Shown piece by piece: positions 21,580-40,117 of a stretch of DNA of 64,000 nt (position 1 is its first letter; the number at the start of each line of letters is the position of its first letter). The notes beneath the pieces were generated by a model that saw only the letters and a program-made list of their open reading frames with translations, did not search any database and was not told the DNA's origin. Position numbers and translations under genes: made by a program. This DNA comes from a virus (lineage: Duplodnaviria > Heunggongvirae > Uroviricota > Caudoviricetes): IMG/VR virus record IMGVR_UViG_3300046491_000064, positions 40,060 to 104,059 of that record. One strand, given 5' to 3'.

Positions 21580-22155
21580 ATGAAAATCAACATCACGCCA
21601 GCCATTCGGAACAAGATTTTTGCAGCGATGGTTGCTGCTGGAATGTCCGGCCCAGTCGCCTATGTGGCGAGCAATCACACCGTCAGTTCCGAGGGGATGT
21701 ACTCAAGCCCCTACATGGACCCTGTAGGTTTGAAGACGTACTGTGTTGGTCATCTGGTTAAAAAGAACGAGGTGGTCAAGGATGATTATTCTGAGGATGA
21801 GTGTATCAAGCTCTTCGTCAAGGACTTCACACAACACGCTGAGAGGCTAAGTACGATGGTGACTGTACCCTACCGTTCAGAATGGATGAAAGGGGCTGCT
21901 ATCGACTTCACGTTTCACATGGGTGAGGGAAATGTCAGGTCCAGTACGTTTCTAAAGGAACTAAACGCTAAGCATTATGACCAAGCTTGTGACCAGCTGA
22001 CCCGTTGGGTTTATGGGAAGCAAAACGGAATCATGGTGAAGATGCCGGGATTGGTTATCCGAGCTACTGAGCGGTACAAGTTTTGCATGGGCGAGATTCC
22101 AGCCGATTACTCGCCTACCCTTCAACGATTAGGAGTAAAGGTAGATGCTAAATAG
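21580..22155 (+). CDS. SAR endolysin (GH24 T4-type lysozyme with N-terminal signal-arrest-release segment)
   Basis: catalytic E-x8-D-x5-T (EGMYSSPYMDPVGLKT) then CVGH; N-terminal Ala/Gly-rich weakly hydrophobic IFAAMVAAGMSGPVAYVA. Confidence 0.8.
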   Translation: MKINITPAIRNKIFAAMVAAGMSGPVAYVASNHTVSSEGMYSSPYMDPVGLKTYCVGHLVKKNEVVKDDYSEDECIKLFVKDFTQHAERLSTMVTVPYRSEWMKGAAIDFTFHMGEGNVRSSTFLKELNAKHYDQACDQLTRWVYGKQNGIMVKMPGLVIRATERYKFCMGEIPADYSPTLQRLGVKVDAK

Positions 22156-22456
22156 GATTTACAGAAGTATGAAACGGCACTACCACCTGTATTCCTTTAT
22201 TGGGAATAGCTTAATGGCTTTGTCATTAGGAGGGCTGGCTTTGCTTGGATTACTTACGAACGTGATGACCGCTGCATGGTTGTTTGGTTGGGGACTGATG
22301 TTCGCACTGGTCTTCGCAATTGGGAAAGTCATTGACCAAGAAGTCGATGACATGGATAAGGTGACCGCTCATGAAATTATTGGATTGGTTAAAGAACAAG
22401 GCAATGACGATTGTACTTGTCGCACTGTTGACCCTGCTATCGACGTTACTGGTTAG
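22145..22456 (+). CDS. holin / pinholin candidate (2 TMDs)
   Basis: 103 aa with two hydrophobic helices and charged C-terminus; adjacent to endolysin. Confidence 0.5.
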   Translation: MLNRIYRSMKRHYHLYSFIGNSLMALSLGGLALLGLLTNVMTAAWLFGWGLMFALVFAIGKVIDQEVDDMDKVTAHEIIGLVKEQGNDDCTCRTVDPAIDVTG

Positions 22457-22766
22457 CAACCACAGTAAAGAGCAAGAGCTTCTGACGCTGAGGACTGACT
22501 ACCAGACTGAACATGCAGAGGTTAACCGATTGACAGGCGAGAATACACGCCTCCTTGAAGACATTGCTAAGAAGCCGAACGCAGTCGCTGAAACCGTCAA
22601 GGAAGTGTACAAAGAAATCTGCACAGGTGCTGTCGCGGAAGAAAGAATACTCAACGCACCACCTACTGTCAAGAGGGATGTAAAAAATGAAAGCCAACAA
22701 GCTACAAAAGTGTATGCAGACATTGATGCTCCTTTTGACCCTGAGTTTATCAAGTTGCTCGAATGA
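22371..22766 (+). CDS. i-spanin (Rz-like)
   Basis: N-terminal TMD then coiled-coil periplasmic domain; o-spanin gene embedded/overlapping at 3' end. Confidence 0.55.
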   Translation: MKLLDWLKNKAMTIVLVALLTLLSTLLVSNHSKEQELLTLRTDYQTEHAEVNRLTGENTRLLEDIAKKPNAVAETVKEVYKEICTGAVAEERILNAPPTVKRDVKNESQQATKVYADIDAPFDPEFIKLLE

Positions 22767-23031
22767 TCCAGTTAAAACTGAAATCGTTTACCAGCGAGAA
22801 TACATTCCGTTGTCAATGCTTACGATTGCTTGCGAAACACGCACCGATGTCTCTACGCCCCGTCTTTTAGGTGCTGCGTGGCAGAGTGAAAAGAAATGTC
22901 ATTCCGCCTACAAAAAGCTCATAGAAGGTTTAATCAAAGATTACACTAAAGAGGGAGAATCCCCCAATGTCAACACAACCAACACAGGAAAACGGGAAGC
23001 TCCAAGAGCTAATGAACAAGTGGGGAGTTAA
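22687..23031 (+). CDS. o-spanin lipoprotein (Rz1-like)
   Basis: signal peptide with lipobox LSLSSC; starts inside i-spanin gene in +1 frame. Confidence 0.6.
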   Translation: MKANKLQKCMQTLMLLLTLSLSSCSNDPVKTEIVYQREYIPLSMLTIACETRTDVSTPRLLGAAWQSEKKCHSAYKKLIEGLIKDYTKEGESPNVNTTNTGKREAPRANEQVGS

Positions 23032-23308
23032 GAGTGCCTTTCTGTTACTTGTTCTCTGTTCTTGGATTTACCAACAAGATCGGGCACAAGTAATGTCAGA
23101 CAATAAAGCGCTTGCCGCACGAACCGCTGCAAACGAGCGGGCGATTGGAAGACTTCAGGAAGGGAAAGCTTCGCGGGAGGAATTGAAAAGTGCAATTGAG
23201 ACAATCGCAAGAGACAATCAGCGAAGTCGAGATGACTTGAAAGAATCCATGAATACACTTCGGAACGACCTTGTTCAAAGAATGGATATTATTGTTTCTA
23301 AAAAGTAA
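22967..23308 (+). CDS. membrane protein (single TMD, coiled coil), lysis-associated?
   Basis: 113 aa, TMD SAFLLLVLCSWIY. Confidence 0.4.
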   Translation: MSTQPTQENGKLQELMNKWGVKSAFLLLVLCSWIYQQDRAQVMSDNKALAARTAANERAIGRLQEGKASREELKSAIETIARDNQRSRDDLKESMNTLRNDLVQRMDIIVSKK

Positions 23309-23318
23309 AGCTTACAAA

Positions 23319-23346
23319 CACAAGCCCCTGACTTCTTGTCGAGGGG
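23319..23346. terminator. bidirectional rho-independent terminator between convergent blocks
   Basis: agcccct..gaggggct hairpin flanked by T-rich runs on both strands; genes converge here. Confidence 0.55.
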
Positions 23347-23358
23347 CTTCTTTGTGTC

Positions 23359-23766
23359 TCAGTATTGTGACACCATCTCTTCGGTCACCACAAGCTCTTT
23401 TTCACGTCGATTGCAAATTCCAAGGAACTCTATCGACAGATGCTTGTCCAACCAGTATCTGAGGAACCATTCAAGCTCCTGAGAGGCTGCTGAAGGCACG
23501 CACGAATTGACATCCTCATCGTCGCCTACCATATCAGATAAACGATCATCCCACCGTTCGTGGAGTATGTCAAGGTCTTTCGTCGAGAAAACTTCAGAAC
23601 CTTTCCGATCAAAGGCATCAGCTACCCAATACGACAGACGGACACCAACACTCAGTTCACTCAACTCATATGCGATATTCAGACATTCAGTGATTACTTC
23701 ACTTTCATCAAAGAAGCAATAAGCTGAGTCATCTACGCTGTAACAATTTCTTACTTCCCTGTTCAC
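23359..23766 (-). CDS. acidic hypothetical protein
   Basis: 135 aa, strongly D/E-rich; last gene of leftward block. Confidence 0.5.
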   Translation of the reverse strand: MNREVRNCYSVDDSAYCFFDESEVITECLNIAYELSELSVGVRLSYWVADAFDRKGSEVFSTKDLDILHERWDDRLSDMVGDDEDVNSCVPSAASQELEWFLRYWLDKHLSIEFLGICNRREKELVVTEEMVSQY

Positions 23767-23972
23767 TAGATTGTCCTCTTTTGAAGATGTTCAAACGTTT
23801 TGTTCTCTACCTTTTCCTTTTGTGCATGTTGCACAGGTTGTTCAATCTTCTGAGGTTGTGCAGTAAAACATTTTGGAACAGGCTGTTTATCAACAGGGTA
23901 CTTCTCGACATACTTAGAAATACCCAAACTAATAATCAGACCGAGAAAGATACCGGTCAAAAACTTATTCAT
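23766..23972 (-). CDS. small membrane protein
   Basis: 68 aa with N-terminal TMD; ATGA-type coupling. Confidence 0.45.
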   Translation of the reverse strand: MNKFLTGIFLGLIISLGISKYVEKYPVDKQPVPKCFTAQPQKIEQPVQHAQKEKVENKTFEHLQKRTI

Positions 23973-24496
23973 GCGTTATTGATCACCACACTACCAGTGC
24001 AATTGATAGTGATGTTTCCACCATTCAAATACACCTGTTGGTTTTCTTTGTCAATAACAAATTGATCAGCTGCCACCACGAATTCAGGAGCCAAAACAAT
24101 TTCAGATTCAACCACACCTTGTTCCTCAATCGGGAACAAAGAAATCAGGTGATCACGCAGGCGAATAGATTCAGCGTTACTGAAACGATAATGCATTGGT
24201 TGACGTTGAGTCATTGACAGATAAAGGTTTGGACCGTCGCTGACATGCATAACTTCGAATTTGATTTGATCCTTTTGACAATCAGTGAAGACATCCAAAG
24301 GTTCTGGTTCGACATAAACTTCAATTTCACTAGGATAGAACGAACGGGTATCGTCAATCTCTTCAATGTACACATCATACACATCCGATGTTCCGTTGTG
24401 ATCAACATTTATAACAATACCGGTCATACCCGGATAGCAGGCTCGAAAACCGCCATCTGTAACCAATACAACCTTAGTACCTTTATCAAGCAACAT
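23969..24496 (-). CDS. hypothetical protein
   Basis: internal ATG at 24496 avoids overlap with upstream gene; about 175 aa. Confidence 0.4.
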   Translation of the reverse strand: MLLDKGTKVVLVTDGGFRACYPGMTGIVINVDHNGTSDVYDVYIEEIDDTRSFYPSEIEVYVEPEPLDVFTDCQKDQIKFEVMHVSDGPNLYLSMTQRQPMHYRFSNAESIRLRDHLISLFPIEEQGVVESEIVLAPEFVVAADQFVIDKENQQVYLNGGNITINCTGSVVINNA

Positions 24497-24794
24497 TCTT
24501 TTCTCCTTGTTTGTTATCATCGATAGCATCTTGAACAAGCAGCATGAGCTTGTCAATGTTCTTATCACAGAAGGCATCAATCTCGTGGTCGAGCATTGGC
24601 ACCCAAATGTAAGGGGTTCCAGCCAAAAGCCATTGCACTTCAACCTTTACGACCTCAAAATCAGTTTCTCGATGACCGTAAAAATCGATGTCGCAAGGAG
24701 CCTCTGGTTCGAAACTCCCCGGAACATGATAGTCGTTGTGAACATCCACGGTAAGACGTGTGGAACTGTCGAACTCAACAACCAAATTCTTCAT
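24486..24794 (-). CDS. hypothetical protein
   Basis: 102 aa ORF. Confidence 0.45.
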   Translation of the reverse strand: MKNLVVEFDSSTRLTVDVHNDYHVPGSFEPEAPCDIDFYGHRETDFEVVKVEVQWLLAGTPYIWVPMLDHEIDAFCDKNIDKLMLLVQDAIDDNKQGEKNVA

Positions 24795-24814
24795 AACTAC
24801 CCCTTTGATTAAAA

Positions 24815-25063
24815 TTAGTTTGACCTGCGAATTGTCTTAAAAGCTTCCACCAAGCTTGCCTTCGTTCGTGTCTTACCGTCCATGCGTAGAACTCTGTATC
24901 GTCCCCGTCCGAGCTTGTAGACAACGCCTAGAAGCTCTTCCCCACCTTCAGTGTACACGTAACGCATGTCTTTGTCTTCGGTATCGAAACGACTCAACAC
25001 TTTATGCTTGCTCATGGCTCTCACTCCGGTTTTGATTAACAGTTTGTAGATGTTCCCCATCAC
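24815..25063 (-). CDS. hypothetical basic protein
   Basis: 82 aa ORF (possibly starting at internal Met). Confidence 0.4.
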   Translation of the reverse strand: MMGNIYKLLIKTGVRAMSKHKVLSRFDTEDKDMRYVYTEGGEELLGVVYKLGRGRYRVLRMDGKTRTKASLVEAFKTIRRSN

Positions 25064-25069
25064 CTGTTA

Positions 25070-25098
25070 GCAAGTATAAAGCTTTCAACCTGTGTGTC
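25070..25098 (-). promoter_or_regulatory. internal sigma70-like promoter TTGACA-16-TATACT (minus strand)
   Basis: read on reverse complement of 25070-25098. Confidence 0.35.
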
Positions 25099-25324
25099 AA
25101 CGACCGTTCGTCGGCATCGGAACAACGTTGTTTTTGACAATAGAAGAAAGGATTGCAATGTCGATTTGACGCTGAGCCTTGTCCTCTTCCCGGTCAAGCT
25201 GAAGGTTATGCTCTTTATTCTGAATGTGAATCACAAACCACACGATTCCGTATGGTAGGAAGCACAGAGTCAGCAGTGCGTGCAAGATGTGCATTGTTTC
25301 TTTACGATGAGACATTCCATTCAC
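25097..25324 (-). CDS. small membrane protein
   Basis: 75 aa, AAGGAG RBS, TMD ILHALLTLCFLPYGIVWFVI. Confidence 0.45.
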   Translation of the reverse strand: MNGMSHRKETMHILHALLTLCFLPYGIVWFVIHIQNKEHNLQLDREEDKAQRQIDIAILSSIVKNNVVPMPTNGR

Positions 25325-25426
25325 TCCTTGGTATGATATTGCGGATTAAATATTGTGCTTCTTCAGCAGTATTCAACAGGATACTCTTATAGCCTTCGCT
25401 GGTCAATATGAATACCTTAAACTTTA

Positions 25427-25570
25427 TTACTCCCACCTGTCAATTTCCCTCCCGTCCATATCACAATTCTCAAATGGTGTCAAGACAAAACGATCAAGGT
25501 CAGTAATGATACCTGACCCCAGTCTCATCATCTCAAGTTCAACACGACGAACGAGTGTATCGCTCGCCAT
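25427..25570 (-). CDS. small hypothetical ORF (47 aa)
   Basis: found manually; no strong RBS. Confidence 0.25.
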   Translation of the reverse strand: MASDTLVRRVELEMMRLGSGIITDLDRFVLTPFENCDMDGREIDRWE

Positions 25571-25596
25571 GTAAGGTTCAAACTGTTGAATCGATC

Positions 25597-27189
25597 TTAC
25601 GATAACGTCAGGAGTTCTGCAACCTCTTGAATTTCCTGACGAATCATCTTTCCCACAGTATCAACGCTTTGTGACCGGCAACGGTTAATCATATCTTGAA
25701 CTGTCTGGTTATAACCCAGAATACCTTTCACACGGGTCAGTGCAACATACAACAAGTTGCGTTCCATATCATTCAGACCAATCCAATCGCCATCTTCGTT
25801 AAATGGACTTGGGAAGTCATCAGCAAGGATTACAATGTTCCATTCACGACCTTTTGACTTGTGAGCCGTAGTCAGGATTACATCCGGGTTATGCACGTTC
25901 TTATGCGAGCGCAGGGTGTCAAGCACCTTGTAAACAGCACCGCTCTTAACCATGTTGTAAACACGCAGAAGTTCACCTTTTACAACTTCGGCTTCATCTC
26001 CCATCTCTTTCCAGTTATCGAACTGGATTAGACTTTCGTGTTTAACCTTGTTCATTTCACCGTTTTTCAAACAAATTGCACTTTCGAGCAACTTAGTGAA
26101 ATCACCAACATCCATCTCAAGGTTTACTTTCTTACCTTGTTCCAACAACGAAACAGCTTCAAAGATCAATGCACCGTTAGTACGGAACAGCATTGTGTAT
26201 TGTTCATCCCACAAATGCACTGGAATGTGATCTTTTCGCATTACTTCAGTATTCAGCTTTTCCCAACCTTTTACATCAGTTTGAATCATGCCGTCATTAG
26301 CCAAAACCATATCAGCCAGATCACCAACTGCCTGACCAAAACGGAAGCTTTTCGACAACTTAGCTTCAGGCCAGTTCAGTTTCAGCATACCGTTAACGGC
26401 ACCCCGCCACGAATAGATGTTCTGATAACCATCACCTACAGCGAATAGTTTGCAGCGACCAACCTGAGACAGAAAGATATCCATAACAACTGGAATTACA
26501 TCTTGACTTTCATCAAGATATAGAATCTCGTACTGCGAAAGATTTGGTTTAGACAGCTGATACAACTTCAAATAAGTATCGTGAGTTGCAAGAACCGGAC
26601 TACGCAGATCACAGCGAAGTTCCCACAGTTTCATTGCATGAGAAAGAACCAGATACTTATAAGCACGCATTGCAGATTCATCACGCAACAAATGTTGGTC
26701 GCAAGGACTGCACGAAACGTGAGCGTTAGTCATTTTCTCATCAGCGGATTGTTCGAAGCGTGCAACAGTTTCCTTAATTGCAACACCTACACCACCTTGT
26801 TTCATCCTGCGAGTTTCACGTTCACCTTTCAGCATGTAAATGAAATCGTTTGTTTTGAAATACTTACCGATTTCACTACCAGTACCGGCGACATTCTTAT
26901 ATGCACCAGTAGGACGTGACAGCTTATTACGCATTGGATCACCGAAGTGTTGATATGCGAGACTGTGCGTGGTACGGCATTCAACCCATGATGGGAAACG
27001 TTCTTTCGCCTCATCAGCGAGTGCTTTGTTAAATGTCAGCATAATGCTTTTTACAGGATGTGCATTAGCAACCATAACCAACGTAGAGGTTTTAGCTGCA
27101 CCAGCATATGCTGCAATCTTCATTTCAGTGTACAGCTTGCTCATTTCTACAACGTGGTTTTGCTCATCCGTTGGTTTGATGTTGCTCAT
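25597..27189 (-). CDS. SF1 DNA helicase (UvrD/Rep-like) with atypical Walker A
   Basis: motifs II DESQD, III GDGYQNIYSWRGA, V TTAHKSKGREW, VI LYVALTRVKG; motif I reads AYAGAAKTS (Ala where Gly precedes Lys). Confidence 0.8.
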   Translation of the reverse strand: MSNIKPTDEQNHVVEMSKLYTEMKIAAYAGAAKTSTLVMVANAHPVKSIMLTFNKALADEAKERFPSWVECRTTHSLAYQHFGDPMRNKLSRPTGAYKNVAGTGSEIGKYFKTNDFIYMLKGERETRRMKQGGVGVAIKETVARFEQSADEKMTNAHVSCSPCDQHLLRDESAMRAYKYLVLSHAMKLWELRCDLRSPVLATHDTYLKLYQLSKPNLSQYEILYLDESQDVIPVVMDIFLSQVGRCKLFAVGDGYQNIYSWRGAVNGMLKLNWPEAKLSKSFRFGQAVGDLADMVLANDGMIQTDVKGWEKLNTEVMRKDHIPVHLWDEQYTMLFRTNGALIFEAVSLLEQGKKVNLEMDVGDFTKLLESAICLKNGEMNKVKHESLIQFDNWKEMGDEAEVVKGELLRVYNMVKSGAVYKVLDTLRSHKNVHNPDVILTTAHKSKGREWNIVILADDFPSPFNEDGDWIGLNDMERNLLYVALTRVKGILGYNQTVQDMINRCRSQSVDTVGKMIRQEIQEVAELLTLS

Positions 27190-27359
27190 TTAAAGAAACC
27201 CTCTAAGTCAATGTCTTCGATACGACGATGTTCAATAACAAGATCGTCTTTGAATGTTGGGGCAATCATACCATGCTCGATCAGAACGTCAATCGTTTTC
27301 TCAACAGAATCCTGATTTTCTATCGAAGACAGACCGTAAAGGATTAACGTTGCATTCAT
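27186..27359 (-). CDS. small hypothetical protein (57 aa)
   Basis: found manually; GGGAGA RBS; ATGA overlap with upstream stop and with helicase start. Confidence 0.4.
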   Translation of the reverse strand: MNATLILYGLSSIENQDSVEKTIDVLIEHGMIAPTFKDDLVIEHRRIEDIDLEGFFK

Positions 27360-27553
27360 TCCGTTCTCCCTTGTTCCTTTAGAAATTTACGGTGTAGTTC
27401 TTCCATATGTGGTCGGAATGATGCAGCTGGTCCCGGTTTAGATTTGCTACCCCATTCACCACGTTTGGTTGCTTCATAGAATTCCATTGCTTGACTACCC
27501 GGCATGATTCTGGTAAAGACACCGGGAGGACATTCGACTACTACGCCTTTCAT
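27356..27553 (-). CDS. hypothetical protein
   Basis: 65 aa. Confidence 0.45.
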   Translation of the reverse strand: MKGVVVECPPGVFTRIMPGSQAMEFYEATKRGEWGSKSKPGPAASFRPHMEELHRKFLKEQGRTE

Positions 27554-27930
27554 AGTTTCACCTTACGGATAGGTTTAAATGTACCATGTCTAGCCTTGTT
27601 TACAGACAGACTGCTAAAACTCAGTGGGCAATACTGGATAGAATAATGCTCACCATCCATGTATACACCGCTCTGACTATCAACGAAATCAGAAATCTCA
27701 AACACAATTGGGTCATCATTGCTAGGGTAAGCAACACCATCATTTCTGACAAGGTAGTATTTACCATCCTGAGACAATGCTGTCAAGTATTCTTCGATTG
27801 CTTCTTTAAGACACACCTTCAGGTTGTTGAAGAGATATGCGTTAGGTTCTTGGTATTTACGAACACCATCAAGAAGGTTCCAAGCTGCATCATTCAGAGC
27901 ATCATCAAATTCAATTTCTACACGACTCAT
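27550..27930 (-). CDS. hypothetical protein
   Basis: start at ATG 27930 (ATGA-coupled to upstream small ORF); ORF frame opens at 27939. Confidence 0.5.
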   Translation of the reverse strand: MSRVEIEFDDALNDAAWNLLDGVRKYQEPNAYLFNNLKVCLKEAIEEYLTALSQDGKYYLVRNDGVAYPSNDDPIVFEISDFVDSQSGVYMDGEHYSIQYCPLSFSSLSVNKARHGTFKPIRKVKL

Positions 27931-28082
27931 TTTAACCACTCCAGTAAACGCTTGATAAAAGGTTTGTTAATATTCTTTGGAAGCAATTGTACACGACTTT
28001 GAGGTGGTGTGATACCACCAATACCTGAAGACCATTCCCCACCGCTTTCACATTTGAGTCTCTTACTGCCGGGCGTTTTCAT
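27927..28082 (-). CDS. small basic hypothetical protein (51 aa)
   Basis: found manually; fills the gap between flanking genes with stop/start coupling on both sides. Confidence 0.35.
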   Translation of the reverse strand: MKTPGSKRLKCESGGEWSSGIGGITPPQSRVQLLPKNINKPFIKRLLEWLK

Positions 28083-28083
28083 A

Positions 28084-28356
28084 CTATCGCCACATGTAAA
28101 CAGCGGGGTAAGAACCTTTGGTGTTCATTCCCATTTCTTGTGCCCAATGCAGTTTAACAATATCACTGAAAGCACCGCAAGCATATGTTTGGATGAAAGT
28201 GACCAAACCATTATCAAACCACAGCTTTTCATTCAGACCACCATCCTCATCGAATAGAGACTTGTGCATTTCTTCATGACGGTCATGGTAGCGATATGGG
28301 TCATACGATTTGTCAAGGAAATTTCCTTTGATATCAAAGATGTCGTTCAAGTTCAT
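28084..28356 (-). CDS. hypothetical protein
   Basis: 90 aa. Confidence 0.5.
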   Translation of the reverse strand: MNLNDIFDIKGNFLDKSYDPYRYHDRHEEMHKSLFDEDGGLNEKLWFDNGLVTFIQTYACGAFSDIVKLHWAQEMGMNTKGSYPAVYMWR

Positions 28357-28357
28357 T

Positions 28358-28546
28358 TCATTTCTCCAGCTTAGTGAGTTCAGTTTCTGACGTTGACCCT
28401 TTGGTCAAATCCCAACTGAGATTCCAGATGTTTTCAAGTAAGAAATACCAAGAGCCTTGATATTTTCCGTAAAGCATTGAATATCCAAGAGCAGATGGAC
28501 GGCTGTGTGTGGCTTTAATCTGGTCATACGGTACGAGCATTTGCAT
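28358..28546 (-). CDS. hypothetical protein (first gene of leftward block)
   Basis: start MQMLVPYD at 28546 with AAAGGAG RBS; earlier in-frame ATGs fall inside promoter. Confidence 0.45.
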   Translation of the reverse strand: MQMLVPYDQIKATHSRPSALGYSMLYGKYQGSWYFLLENIWNLSWDLTKGSTSETELTKLEK

Positions 28547-28574
28547 TTTGGTACTCCTTTGAGTGAATGCCGCC

Positions 28575-28602
28575 ATTCTATACCGTTGGTCAGGCTTGTC
28601 AA
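28575..28602 (-). promoter_or_regulatory. leftward sigma70 promoter TTGACA-16-TAGAAT
   Basis: -35 complement at 28597-28602, -10 complement at 28575-28580. Confidence 0.5.
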
Positions 28603-28608
28603 CCCCTA

Positions 28609-28637
28609 TTGACAAAATCGTTTGAGGTCTGTAGAAT
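28609..28637 (+). promoter_or_regulatory. rightward sigma70 promoter TTGACA-17-TAGAAT (divergent partner)
   Basis: -35 28609-28614, -10 28632-28637; -35 hexamers of the two promoters are 6 bp apart. Confidence 0.55.
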
Positions 28638-28973
28638 GGGCAACCTAACGAACGGAATGAGCTTTTTACGTCTTAATCACGGGTTTCTCATTCTTCAAGG
28701 CCAGATAACCGAGCAAGGCCAACATGATGCGGAAGTGGATCGTAATGGATTCTGGCACAGCATCGCAAGCTACCTGCAACGGTAGTCGAGTGCCACGGGA
28801 GAAAGATGTTGCAATCTTATCCTACCCTGTGTATCGTAAGGTACATGTCAGCAACACGCTGAGAATGAGGCTCCGCTGAGCATATTCACGGGTTACTCCT
28901 TGGGAACCGATTGTGTTCCCTATAAGGGGAAGTCTACCCGAATTTCACCACTGAGCATATTAGGAGATGTAGT

Positions 28974-29189
28974 GTGTTAGTAGTACAGTGTCCAAACGAT
29001 AAGAATTCATGGTTAGAGGTACAGGATAAGTTCGATACAGATGGTGAGCTACACTTAGCTGTGAACGAGTGGTACAAGGGTAAGGAGGCGTTTCGTGAAC
29101 AATGCGTGTACATGTCTAGGGATCAGGTGATCGAGCTTGTACAGCATCTCAAGAAGGCTCTGAACGATGCATACGGAATAGGAGTGTAA
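28974..29189 (+). CDS. hypothetical protein (GTG start)
   Basis: AGGAG 7 nt upstream of GTG 28974. Confidence 0.4.
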   Translation: MLVVQCPNDKNSWLEVQDKFDTDGELHLAVNEWYKGKEAFREQCVYMSRDQVIELVQHLKKALNDAYGIGV

Positions 29190-31565: not shown

Positions 31566-32462
31566 GTGATGTTTAAGAAGTTGATTGGTATTGTAGTGTT
31601 GGGTATGACTCTGGCACTTAGCGGTTGTGGTGAACGCGTGGAAGTTCCACCGGGCTTTGTTGGTAAGATCATGACCAAAGATGGTTATCAGGAAGGTCTG
31701 ATTCCAACTTCGAAACTGCGTCTACCATTCTGTAATGCTTACTGTGATCGTCTTGTTGTTCTGGACACCACGGACAAGTCGTATGTTGAGCAAATGGCTA
31801 TCTTCATTCCGGGTGATAAGCTGATTGTAAATGTCGATCTGCGTGCAACTCTGTCGGTTGATCCAACTAAGGCAGAGGCAATGTTTAATAAGCTGCCACA
31901 AGTACCTGAGAGTGATCAGTTCAGTAAGATTACTGCTGAATCGATCTACAGTACATATGGTAAACAAGTATTGCAGGCTGAAGTTCGTTCTTACCTGACT
32001 CGTTACACAATCTCTGAGATTGCATCGAATGGTGAGAAGATTAACGCTGACATTCAGGTACTGCTTGCAAAGGTTATGGGTGAGCGTACACCGTTTACTG
32101 TTCGATATGCTGGCTTGACCAACATCAAGTATCCTGAGATTATCACTCAGGCTCAAGAGAACAGTGCAAAGCGTCGTGAAATGATTGCTCAGGAAGAGGC
32201 ACAACTTGAAGTAAGTAAAGTTCAACTTGATCGTGAGTTGCAAGAAGCTAAGATGCAGCGTGCAATTGACAAAGAGAAAGCTGAGACTGAAGCTGTAGCT
32301 CAAACTGTTCTGGCTAATGCTGTTGATCCACGTAGTCTGCGAATCAAAGAACTTGAGATTCAAAAGATTCTGGCTGAGAAGTGGGATGGTGCTCTGCCTC
32401 AAACAATCATGGGCGGTGACGGTAAAGTTCCTCTGATCATGGACATGCGTAAACCTCAGTAA
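31566..32462 (+). CDS. SPFH/band-7 (prohibitin/stomatin-like) lipoprotein
   Basis: signal peptide with lipobox LALSGC; band-7 core followed by Glu/Gln-rich coiled coil. Confidence 0.65.
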   Translation: MMFKKLIGIVVLGMTLALSGCGERVEVPPGFVGKIMTKDGYQEGLIPTSKLRLPFCNAYCDRLVVLDTTDKSYVEQMAIFIPGDKLIVNVDLRATLSVDPTKAEAMFNKLPQVPESDQFSKITAESIYSTYGKQVLQAEVRSYLTRYTISEIASNGEKINADIQVLLAKVMGERTPFTVRYAGLTNIKYPEIITQAQENSAKRREMIAQEEAQLEVSKVQLDRELQEAKMQRAIDKEKAETEAVAQTVLANAVDPRSLRIKELEIQKILAEKWDGALPQTIMGGDGKVPLIMDMRKPQ

Positions 32463-34560: not shown

Positions 34561-36477
34561 TTGTCGTTAATTGAAAAGGTAGTTAAGCATTACAACCCTG
34601 ATTATAAGGGTGAGGAAAAGATTGTCTGTCCGTTTCATAAAGAGCGAACCCCTTCACTAAATATCTATCACGATCAGAATACGTTCTATTGTTTTGGTTG
34701 TGGTGCCGGTAGTAGTGTTATTGATTACGTTGCGTACAGTGAAGATTTAGATGTAAAGGAAGAGTTTACTGTAGCTCGTGACAAGACTATGGCAATTCTG
34801 GATATGAATTATGAAGACTACCAAGGGGAACGTAAAAAAGTGAGTGAAGGTAACGCTACGGTTATGTTGAATGACTGTCTGCCAGCAATGACAGACGAAG
34901 ATGTAAAGGCTTTCATGGGTTCTGCAAACAAGGTAATCAATGGTCAAAAGGTCAATTGGTTCCAAGGTTTGGGTTACCGTGGGATTAAAGATGAATACCT
35001 CAAGAAGTATGGTCACGTTACAAAGAAAGATGACGAAGGCAACATCGTTAGCCGTCATTACCCTGAAACCAATACTAAAGGAAAGATCGCAGGTTACAAG
35101 TGCCGCAATCACCCAAAAGACTTCCGATACGGCAACGTAGGTAGCACTGGTGGTAAGAACCAACTTTCCGGTCAGGTAATCTTTAGTGGGTTGAACAAGT
35201 ATCTGTTGATTGTTGGTGGCGAAGAGGATAAAGTAGCAGCCTACCAAATGCTTGAGGAAAACCGTGCTGGTCGTCCTACTGTTGCAGAAGTGCATGTTGT
35301 ATCTCCTACTTGTGGTGAGAACTCGGCGGTTAAACAGATTGCATCTCAACGTGACTTCTGTGATCGTTATGAACAAATCATCATCGGTATGGATAATGAC
35401 GAAGCTGGCATTAAAGCAGCTGAAGCGATTGCAGCCGTACTTCCAAAGGACAAGGTGAAGATTGCTGTTTGGACTCGTAAAGACCCGAACAAGATGCTTG
35501 AAGACAAGATGTCTGCTCAGTTCTGCCGTGACTTCTATAACGCTCGACCATTGGTTTCAAGCGGTATTAAAGAAAGCACAAGCAGTATGGATTCTGTTCG
35601 TGAGGAACTGATGCGTCCACGTATTCCACTGCCGCCTGAGTGGAAAGATGTACAAGATGCAATGAAAGGTGGTATTCGTCAGGGTAGTATTGTGAATATC
35701 ATTGGTGATACATCGGTTGGTAAATCGACACACGTCAATGGATTGAATTACTTCTGGATGTTTAGTGCACCACAGAAGGTTGGTGTTGTTTCTCTTGAGA
35801 TGACTGAAGGTCAGTACACACTTGACTTGCTGTCTATTCACCTTGAGAAAAACTTGGCATGGATCGGTGAAGGTGCAGACATTCTCGAATATCTGGATCG
35901 TCCAGAAGTTGTGAAACTGTATGACAACTTGCTTACCGATGAAACTGGTCAACCACGTTATGCGATTCTGGATGAACGAGACGGTGACCTCAAGTTGCTG
36001 GAACGTCAGATTGAGAAGTTGATTCACCAACACGGTTGCAAGATCATTGTTATTGACGTACTGACGGATATTCTTCGTGGTGCGAATGGTGATATGCAAG
36101 AAGACCATATGCGGTGGCAGAAGCAAATCGTGAAGACAGGTGTTACCATCGTGAACATCCTGCACACACGTAAGCCTGTTAACTCTGATGGTACATGGCG
36201 TAAAGCAACTGAGTATGATGCATTCGGTAGTTCGACTTTCGTTCAATCGGCAGCATACAACATTGTGATTAGCCGGGACAAGATGAACTCTGACCCGATT
36301 ATTCGCAACCTGACTCACGTTGACCTTCCGAAATGTCGCGGGGGTGAGACCGGCGAAATCATGCAATTGATTTACGATGTTGAAACCCGTAGTGTAATGA
36401 ACTACAACAACTGGTTGGCAAGACAAAGTGGTAATCGAGGTAGCTCACAGCCACACCCTTCCAAACCAGAGTTTTAA
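34561..36477 (+). CDS. bifunctional DNA primase-helicase (T7 gp4-like: Zn-finger, TOPRIM, DnaB-like helicase)
   Basis: TTG start with GGAGGG RBS; CPFH..C.GCG zinc ribbon; TOPRIM acidic motifs; Walker A GDTSVGKST. Confidence 0.85.
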   Translation: MSLIEKVVKHYNPDYKGEEKIVCPFHKERTPSLNIYHDQNTFYCFGCGAGSSVIDYVAYSEDLDVKEEFTVARDKTMAILDMNYEDYQGERKKVSEGNATVMLNDCLPAMTDEDVKAFMGSANKVINGQKVNWFQGLGYRGIKDEYLKKYGHVTKKDDEGNIVSRHYPETNTKGKIAGYKCRNHPKDFRYGNVGSTGGKNQLSGQVIFSGLNKYLLIVGGEEDKVAAYQMLEENRAGRPTVAEVHVVSPTCGENSAVKQIASQRDFCDRYEQIIIGMDNDEAGIKAAEAIAAVLPKDKVKIAVWTRKDPNKMLEDKMSAQFCRDFYNARPLVSSGIKESTSSMDSVREELMRPRIPLPPEWKDVQDAMKGGIRQGSIVNIIGDTSVGKSTHVNGLNYFWMFSAPQKVGVVSLEMTEGQYTLDLLSIHLEKNLAWIGEGADILEYLDRPEVVKLYDNLLTDETGQPRYAILDERDGDLKLLERQIEKLIHQHGCKIIVIDVLTDILRGANGDMQEDHMRWQKQIVKTGVTIVNILHTRKPVNSDGTWRKATEYDAFGSSTFVQSAAYNIVISRDKMNSDPIIRNLTHVDLPKCRGGETGEIMQLIYDVETRSVMNYNNWLARQSGNRGSSQPHPSKPEF

Positions 36478-39944: not shown

Positions 39945-40117
39945 CCGCACTGGAACTAATTGAACATCTGAAGTTTAATATTGCAGATGGTATTCAAACA
40001 TGTCACAATAACCTCAATTCTTCGACAGCAAACAGTTCTGTTGCGATAATCCTCACAGCAATAGAGCGTGCTGTCAATGCAGTTGAAATCGAAATTTACA
40101 AAGGTAATGTGAAATGA
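39941..40117 (+). CDS. small hypothetical protein (58 aa)
   Basis: ATGA coupled both sides. Confidence 0.3.
   Translation: MTALELIEHLKFNIADGIQTCHNNLNSSTANSSVAIILTAIERAVNAVEIEIYKGNVK

Follow-up and report, generated by a model that had tools for sequence, protein, structure and literature searches.

A conserved leftward operon with an FBH1-like helicase in the probable early region of a phiPMW-like phage, and a candidate structured RNA beside it

When a block of phage genes runs against both of its neighbors, is it a separate accessory island or a fixed part of the phage's own program? The question is raised by positions 23359-28602 of a 64,000-nucleotide (nt) stretch of tailed-phage DNA (Caudoviricetes; positions 40,060 to 104,059 of the IMG/VR virus record IMGVR_UViG_3300046491_000064), here called the window. 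An earlier sequence-only reading had taken this block, which encodes a helicase and many tiny proteins, for an accessory island. The block does not stand alone as such an island but is a conserved operon of two core genes, the helicase gene g7 and the small gene g12, accompanied by small genes of fast turnover. Its architecture is of an ordinary type for phages. It probably forms the left-hand arm of a divergent early region in a virulent phage of about 106 kb that is phiPMW-like (Plaisancevirus-related), with the two core genes carried together with early cargo.

The minus strand contains 15 open reading frames (ORFs) between 23359 and 28546, designated g15 to g1, which cover this interval at a coding density of 98.6%. 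Both flanks are encoded on the plus strand, as the sequence-only reading had described. To the left lies a lysis cassette with a Phage_lysozyme gene at 21580 followed by small overlapping genes, and to the right lie small genes, a Band_7 gene at 31566, a DnaG/DnaB-type primase-helicase gene at 34561, and a polymerase-like gene at 36428. GC skew is negative in 23-28 kb only, and the GC content of the block, 0.41-0.44, equals that of the rest of the window. The ATGA-coupled small ORFs reported earlier are also present, with start/stop overlaps at five junctions (g3/g4, g4/g5, g5/g6, g6/g7, and g13/g14). Re-examination of the start codons shifted several genes to starts with a good Shine-Dalgarno sequence, and g13 now begins at 24496 instead of 24643. 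The first gene, g1, most likely starts at the ATG at 28546, which is preceded 7 nt before by AAGGAG and lies downstream of the predicted transcription start, in preference to the TTG at 28615; position 28602 then belongs to the -35 element of the promoter.

Conservation of the block was examined in 22 syntenic loci, which represent 21 distinct genomes because one locus (L019) is phiPMW again. These loci come from the phages SYP and phiPMW, seven metagenomic relatives, and 13 IMG/VR relatives. The IMG/VR relatives came from an alignment-based scan, single-protein helicase scans of IMG/VR and the JGI metagenomes having given none, and the presence or absence of each gene was scored by tblastn. 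When the block was compared by megablast with 50,697 phage records, no nucleotide match to a deposited phage emerged, and an exact-sequence look-up of g7 retrieved no record. At the level of the helicase protein, the nearest deposited relatives are the Pseudomonas phages vB_PpS_SYP (SYP) and phiPMW, with 70% and 63% identity, respectively, and dozens of metagenomic contigs of about 100 kb carry helicases that are 62-77% identical to g7. The phage phiPMW sits on the fringe of the Felix O1 / rV5 supergroup (PMC5587285).

In every locus that covers both flanks, the lysis cassette converges on the helicase block, and the block diverges from the early genes that lead toward the primase-helicase. 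The genes g7 and g12 are found in 22 of 22 relatives, whereas the other 13 genes are patchy or unique, each occurring in 0 to 15 of the 22. The small genes are thus truly variable, but within a fixed unit. Conservation in all relatives together with homologs of replication or recombination proteins, which had been named as the outcome that would speak against an island, was found for the layout and two of the genes, and the helicase fits this description; the remaining 13 do not. The corresponding blocks of phiPMW (PMW_154-180, KU862660) and SYP (gp114-126, OQ183418) likewise lie between a lysis cassette and a primase-helicase region in opposite orientation. One or both of them carry homologs of g12, g8, g3, g5, and g15, and phiPMW has an annotated rho-independent terminator at its convergent junction. 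Both differ from the window in having no nucleotide-level similarity and in most of their small genes. An RNA ligase gene is present in the block of phiPMW and of some other relatives but not in the window. Neither the phiPMW and SYP records nor the phiPMW paper (PMC5587285) describes the organization of the block or the RNA discussed below.

The larger core gene, g7 (25597-27189, minus strand), encodes a 530-amino-acid (aa) SF1A helicase of the UvrD family that falls in an FBH1-like subgroup. The SF1 helicase named in the sequence-only reading is confirmed by the Pfam domains PF00580 UvrD-helicase (41.8 bits, cut-off 23), PF13361 UvrD_C (34.6, cut-off 25.6), and PF13538 UvrD_C_2 (31.9, cut-off 27.4), by a score above the gathering score for AAA_19, and by a match to phrog_1967 (E = 9e-124). 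The catalytic motifs LDESQD (II), GDGYQNIYSWRG (III), and LYVALTR (VI) are intact and conform to the SF1A patterns DExQD, GDxxQxIYxxRG, and VAxTR. The Walker A motif, AYAGAAKTS (residues 28-36; 27081-27107, minus strand), contains an alanine just before the lysine, in the place of the usual glycine. This variant, AGAAK[TS], is shared by most of the 120 family members that were inspected, which points to a family trait kept by selection and speaks against decay.

A sequence search of the PDB with g7 retrieved human FBH1 at E = 5e-36, followed by chains of GajB at 3.5e-4, while UvrD, Rep, and PcrA did not reach 1e-3. The bacterial enzymes UvrD, Rep, and PcrA share with g7 the SF1A motifs and the Pfam UvrD-helicase and UvrD_C domains; however, their NCBIfam models span 668-725 positions and are thus longer than the 530-aa g7, and the NCBIfam equivalog models score g7 at only 26-35 bits against cut-offs of 543-1168, so that g7 does not qualify as an ortholog of UvrD, Rep, PcrA, or helicase IV. 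FBH1 is a UvrD-like 3'-5' SF1 helicase that reverses replication forks and removes RAD51 (PMC12946210). The human enzyme (PDB 9xzj) is the closest solved structure by sequence, with an alignment that runs from Walker A to motif III and again through motifs V-VI, and the core of g7 is closer to it than to other SF1A helicases. The two proteins differ in several respects. The motifs of g7 begin at residue 18 of 530, and the protein lacks the F-box (no Pfam F-box match) and the PCNA-binding N-terminus of FBH1. Its Walker A sequence is AGAAKT in place of AGTGKT(S), and a role in ubiquitin ligation is impossible for it in a bacterial cell. Because the alignment starts at residue 18 of g7 and residue 384 of FBH1 and no F-box is present, g7 is described as having an FBH1-like core and not as an FBH1 ortholog.

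The g7 family is found in 267 deposited phage records and is widespread in large virulent phages, including PAK_P3-like phages, the ~150-kb Phapecoctavirus phages of E. coli, and phages of Acinetobacter, Vibrio, and Pseudoalteromonas. In one of these records, the protein is annotated as 'F-box DNA helicase protein 1-like', and the PAK_P3 transcriptome paper is silent on its helicase homolog. Some members are annotated with an intein and are 840-856 aa long or appear as two-piece matches (P0062, P0067; Escherichia phages SD2, PD06, and JohannJBalmer); g7 itself has no intein. The gene is present in all 22 close and all 56 of the more distant loci. Since the genome has a separate DnaB-type primase-helicase (34561) and FBH1 acts on forks and on RAD51, g7 is best understood as an accessory helicase of replication and recombination, whose most likely task is to remodel forks or to strip RecA and other proteins off the phage DNA.

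The second core gene, g12 (24486-24794, minus strand), encodes an acidic protein of 102 aa with a net charge of -13; no other small gene is found beside the helicase in every close relative. Its predicted fold is confident, and no fold family could be assigned to it. A HMMER search of 1.84 billion representative proteins retrieved only 22 stand-alone relatives, of about 95 aa, and a word-indexed protein search returned self-matches only. The family is defined by the core DY..G.F.P.A..D...YG.RET and a C-terminal motif, VQ..ID. These properties identify g12 as a real, folded, clade-restricted family, and the protein may serve as a partner or regulator of the helicase.

The block is bounded by regulatory signals that are also conserved among the relatives. 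At its right end, a predicted leftward promoter (28602-28575, minus strand; TTGACA-16-TAGAAT) lies back to back with a predicted rightward promoter (28609-28637, plus strand; TTGACA-17-TAGAAT). Each matches the consensus at 11 of 12 positions, and both align across relatives, where the leftward one is kept as GGGGTTGACA...TAGAATGGC. A putative internal promoter of sigma-70 type (25100-25073, minus strand; TTGACA-16-TATACT, also 11 of 12) is partly conserved, with TAGACA-17-TAAGCT at the aligned position in the three relatives that carry g11. At all three sites, hexamers of the TTGACA/TATAAT type are spaced 16 or 17 nt apart, within the 16-18 nt of sigma-70 promoters, and align with sites in relatives. 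The sequence-only reading had located the back-to-back pair and, to within a few bases, the internal promoter. The stop codon TGA of g10 lies inside the -35 hexamer of the internal promoter (25095-25100, minus strand), and the sequence coding for the C-terminal ...PTNG of g10, just upstream of that hexamer, is kept in relatives; coding and promoter signals overlap here.

The window as a whole contains 15 sigma-70 sites with at least 11 of 12 matches, compared with 1.4 +/- 1.2 in shuffled sequences (~11-fold enrichment). From 28.6 kb to 63 kb, near-consensus sites follow the orientation of the genes, and nearly all are co-oriented with them. This pattern suggests that the phage leans heavily on the host RNA polymerase across its early/middle region. 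The promoters of the block are part of this genome-wide early/middle set and not special insulators, contrary to the proposal that the island was insulated by dedicated boundaries.

At the left end, a hairpin at 23323-23349 (AAGCCCCT...AGGGGCTT) has the form of an intrinsic bidirectional terminator common to the lysis operon on the plus strand and the leftward operon on the minus strand, only a few bases away from the two-strand terminator reported earlier at 23319-23346. The stable GC-rich stem folds at -21.3 kcal/mol on the plus strand and -22.8 kcal/mol on the minus strand, and T-rich tails follow on both (TTCTTTGTGT, plus; TTGTGTTTGT, minus). A simple terminator scan missed the hairpin because its stem is bulged and its loop long. 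The convergent junction of about 16 of 20 relatives contains an equivalent hairpin, an A-run/GC-stem/T-run with cleaner A-run and T-run flanks, and termination is predicted to occur at this site in the window.

A general model of the block can be assembled from these elements. Host sigma-70 RNA polymerase would start at the leftward promoter (28602-28575), with reinforcement from the internal promoter at 25100-25073, and would transcribe the 15 translationally coupled genes up to the hairpin at 23323-23349, which would also end the convergent lysis operon. The product of g7 would act as an accessory SF1A 3'-5' helicase on forks and in protein clearance during replication and recombination, perhaps with g12 as its partner or regulator. 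Typical early cargo, serving host interaction, exclusion, and possibly anti-defense, would make up the remaining 13 small genes; the host-type promoters that drive them are of the kind that early genes would have.

Several points weigh against this model. When the operon is expressed, and whether its promoters and terminator are used, is deduced from sequence alone. The Walker A motif of g7 has alanine for the canonical glycine (AGAAKT), although this is conserved family-wide, and its catalytic activity is a prediction. Common ancestry might by itself explain why g12 and the helicase occur together in this single clade, and none of the 56 more distant helicase loci contains g12. Moreover, 13 of the 15 genes have no assigned function, and some of them may have an anti-defense role.

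The small genes, all on the minus strand, are described here in the order of transcription. The operon opens with g1 (28358-28546), a 62-aa orphan, followed by g2 (28084-28356; 90 aa, GGAG ribosome-binding site (RBS)), which has homologs in two of the 22 relatives at 53-62% identity. The 51-aa basic protein of g3 (27927-28082; isoelectric point (pI) 10.4) is the commonest tiny gene product among the relatives, at 40-77% identity in 15 of 22. The acidic protein of g4 (27550-27930; 126 aa, ATG start, GGAG RBS) matches, through its N-terminal 50 aa only, a hypothetical protein encoded at another place in SYP and one of a Vibrio phage. Two genes with ATGA overlaps on both sides follow: g5 (27356-27553), which encodes a basic 65-aa protein kept in five relatives at 52-80% identity, and g6 (27186-27359), a 57-aa acidic orphan. 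Downstream of the helicase gene lies g8 (25427-25570; 47 aa, acidic), which is present in eight of the 22 relatives at 46-64% identity and stands immediately after the helicase wherever it occurs. It is followed by g9 (25302-25436; 44 aa, GTG start, GGAGG RBS; four relatives) and g10 (25097-25315; 72 aa, AAGGAG RBS), which occurs in one relative and matches phrog_36892 (function unknown) at E = 1e-8. The first gene past the internal promoter, g11 (24815-25015; ATG start, GGAG RBS), encodes a basic 66-aa protein (pI 10.1) shared with three relatives at 51-63% identity. Beyond g12 lie g13 (23969-24496; ATG start, AAGGAG RBS), a 175-aa acidic protein that is the largest orphan, with no homolog in the 50,697 deposited phage genomes and no family match, and g14 (23766-23972; 68 aa), found in one relative. 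The last gene of the operon is g15 (23359-23766; 135 aa, acidic, GTG start, GAGG RBS), with homologs in seven of the 22 relatives at 27-32% identity and a more divergent copy in locus L003.

Most of the small proteins have no match in Pfam, PHROG, NCBIfam, or PADLOC. Three small membrane proteins had been predicted in the block, but a hydrophobic helix is clear only in two, g10 with one transmembrane helix (residues 13-31, Kyte-Doolittle maximum 2.05) and g14 with an N-terminal one (residues 4-22, 19-residue maximum 1.81). In the left flank, the overlapping small genes downstream of the endolysin (22145-23308, plus strand) end with a gene kept in relatives (22967-23308); one of them (22687-23031, plus strand) carries a lipoprotein-like signal, LLLTLSLSSC, and is nested in the end of the preceding gene. 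The nested pair looks like an i-spanin/o-spanin pair.

The alternative that survives best is the original one, in which the block is an accessory island for host takeover or anti-defense and the acidic g15 is a DNA mimic directed against restriction. Early variable regions are the usual home of host-takeover and anti-defense genes, and the small genes of the block are early-type, variable, and mostly orphans. The g15 protein is as acidic as had been stated, with a pI of 4.27, 22% aspartate plus glutamate, and a net charge of -17, and all nine members of its family are acidic, with pI values of 4.05-4.40. In its small size and conserved acidity it resembles DNA mimics such as the Ocr, ArdA, and DMP19 types. 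However, this acidity is not distinctive, since g12 and g13 (net -17) are comparable, and g6 and g8 are acidic as well. Sequence and profile comparisons also fail to connect g15 with a mimic. Alone, it has no Pfam match at E <= 0.1, and the nine-member profile has no PDB match below E = 0.65. Membership in the families Ocr (PF08684), ArdA (PF07275), or DMP19 (PF14300) was not found, the closest being a non-significant DMP19 match (E = 0.14) in one of the nine members. Among deposited phages, only SYP has a homolog, a word-indexed protein search gave self-matches only, and the single-sequence structural model, with a predicted local distance difference test (pLDDT) score of 40.5, is unusable for reading the fold. 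The mimic proposal draws on acidity and is unsupported rather than refuted, and nothing that supports anti-defense or DNA mimicry was found in the block with Pfam, PHROG, NCBIfam, PADLOC, and the PDB. As the block and its two core genes are kept in every relative, we consider an island of this kind unlikely, with more in its favor than the alternatives that follow.

A second alternative is that several of the tiny ORFs, such as g1, g6, and g9, are not genes and that the operon encodes fewer proteins. Syntenic homologs of g1, g4, g6, and g13 were not found in the 22 relatives, and g3 and g8 have no obvious RBS. Against this, the ORFs tile the block almost completely with five ATGA overlaps and mostly good RBSs, and the strand-specific GC skew agrees with coding on the minus strand. 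Furthermore, g3, g5, g8, and g9 are conserved as proteins, and g3 in particular is a real gene despite its missing RBS because it has homologs in 15 of 22 relatives. A substantially smaller gene set is quite improbable.

A third proposal would make g7 the motor of a phage-borne helicase-nuclease system, Gabija-like or other, for defense or superinfection exclusion. The helicase shares the SF1A motifs with GajB, and in PADLOC it matches one model of a DRT-associated helicase and many of GajB, the best of the latter at E = 1.3e-14. These matches are all partial, however, and are confined to the UvrD motifs common to such proteins (residues 218-316 or 419-491), and in the PDB search FBH1 outranks GajB by a wide difference in E-value. 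Gabija is defined by GajB adjoining GajA, an OLD-family ATPase/TOPRIM nuclease, and none of nine other block proteins scanned matches GajA or any PADLOC model. In addition, hundreds of virulent phages have it as a core gene, and this proposal is largely refuted. Equally improbable is a recent mobile or moron insertion foreign to the backbone, as the opposite orientation and sharp boundaries of the block might suggest, because its GC content equals that of the backbone and no integrase, transposase, or homing-endonuclease match was found among its proteins, and its position and core genes are constant in all relatives.

The divergent junction that the operon shares with the rightward genes contains a further conserved element, which lies beyond the coordinates considered earlier. 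Between the rightward promoter and the first plus-strand gene, which begins at 28974, lie about 335 nt without an ORF. Within this interval, positions 28644-28965 (plus strand) correspond to a conserved structured RNA of ~320 nt, a leader or a non-coding RNA. When the divergent junctions of the relatives are aligned, this stretch is conserved in DNA while the flanking genes on both sides are not, and the RNA is more conserved than every neighboring gene. With nhmmer, 17 distinct relatives were found to carry full-length copies, each of them antisense to the helicase block, and one more (L020, E = 2e-6) was recovered by a covariance model built on the central 140 nt, for a total of 18. The same model has no match in the 56 distant helicase-bearing loci, and a search for counterparts in 596 Gb of bacterial genomes gave 37 motif matches, which is chance level, none of which fits the covariance model. 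Rfam has no match at the gathering score in the whole window and none at E <= 10 in 28560-29050.

The region is annotated in part as protein-coding in both cultured relatives, where the RNA overlaps the hypothetical coding sequences PMW_181 (phiPMW, locus L002, 3886-4185) and vBPpSSYP_113 (SYP, locus L001, 5832-6105). A protein gene was rejected: the RNA varies in length from 307 to 325 nt by differences that are not multiples of three, no frame is open throughout, and the structure covaries. Both annotations are probably mis-annotations of a non-coding region.

Covariation supports the structure at several levels. RNAalifold predicts 64 pairs on seven sequences, of which 32 show compensatory changes, and 49 pairs on 14 sequences, of which 25 do. 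In the 14-sequence alignment, 95.6% of the cells are paired compared with 85.1% in shuffled alignments (0 of 500 reach the observed value) and 36-48% when the partners are slid. Double-sided changes occur at 27 pairs versus 5-10 after sliding, and the covariation score is 0.443 versus 0.09-0.13. An unbiased scan revealed a loop-loop pairing, UGCAAC with GUUGCA in the window RNA. A further helix, GGCAC/GTGCC in the window, crosses helix 2 and forms a pseudoknot. Across the sequences, its 5' strand takes ten distinct hexamer forms. The helix is 5-7 base pairs long in 15 of 15 sequences, compared with a mean of 4.3 base pairs for mismatched strand pairings. Because the invariant G:U pairs lie on the plus sense strand, the structure belongs to the rightward transcript.

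The RNA is a candidate for a new, previously undescribed structured RNA family. That it represents a new class of large structured phage RNA, built of nine or more covarying helices together with a loop-loop contact and an H-type pseudoknot, that acts on the whole early region is a tentative proposal, which we hold as somewhat doubtful. It is not an autoregulatory leader for a single product, because the gene directly downstream differs between relatives, being R1-like in the window and R3-like or R4-like elsewhere. Candidate roles may include processive antitermination in cis, an RNA-II-like origin primer in a divergent control region, and a stand-alone non-coding RNA or ribozyme. The put antitermination RNA of HK022 and the replication primer RNA II of ColE1 are cis-acting leaders located just downstream of early promoters, and the window RNA resembles them in being a structured RNA that a strong promoter of host type would produce where an early operon or divergent control region begins. 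It has no sequence or Rfam relationship to either comparator, and with its ~320 nt, its pseudoknot, and its loop-loop contact it exceeds put in size and complexity. The element YUGAGCAUAUU occurs twice in the RNA (at about 28871-28881 and 28951-28961, plus strand), the second time directly next to the Shine-Dalgarno sequence that precedes the first gene of the rightward set. It is conceivable that a CUCCUU in the 3' domain pairs with that Shine-Dalgarno sequence to form a switch. A functional link between the RNA and the core pair of helicase and g12 is conceivable in principle.

Taken as part of the early region, the block provides phiPMW-like phages with a fixed early operon in which two core genes are accompanied by rapidly exchanged tiny genes. 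The variable early genes g1, g2, g4, g6, g9, g11, g13, g14, and g15 are material for screens of host-takeover and anti-defense functions. The g7 family, whose nearest characterized relative is the eukaryotic fork-remodeling anti-recombinase FBH1 and which has conserved a non-canonical Walker A motif, offers small and tractable models for this subgroup. The RNA at the divergent junction is the feature most worth follow-up, as a target for studying RNA-based control of early development in these phages.

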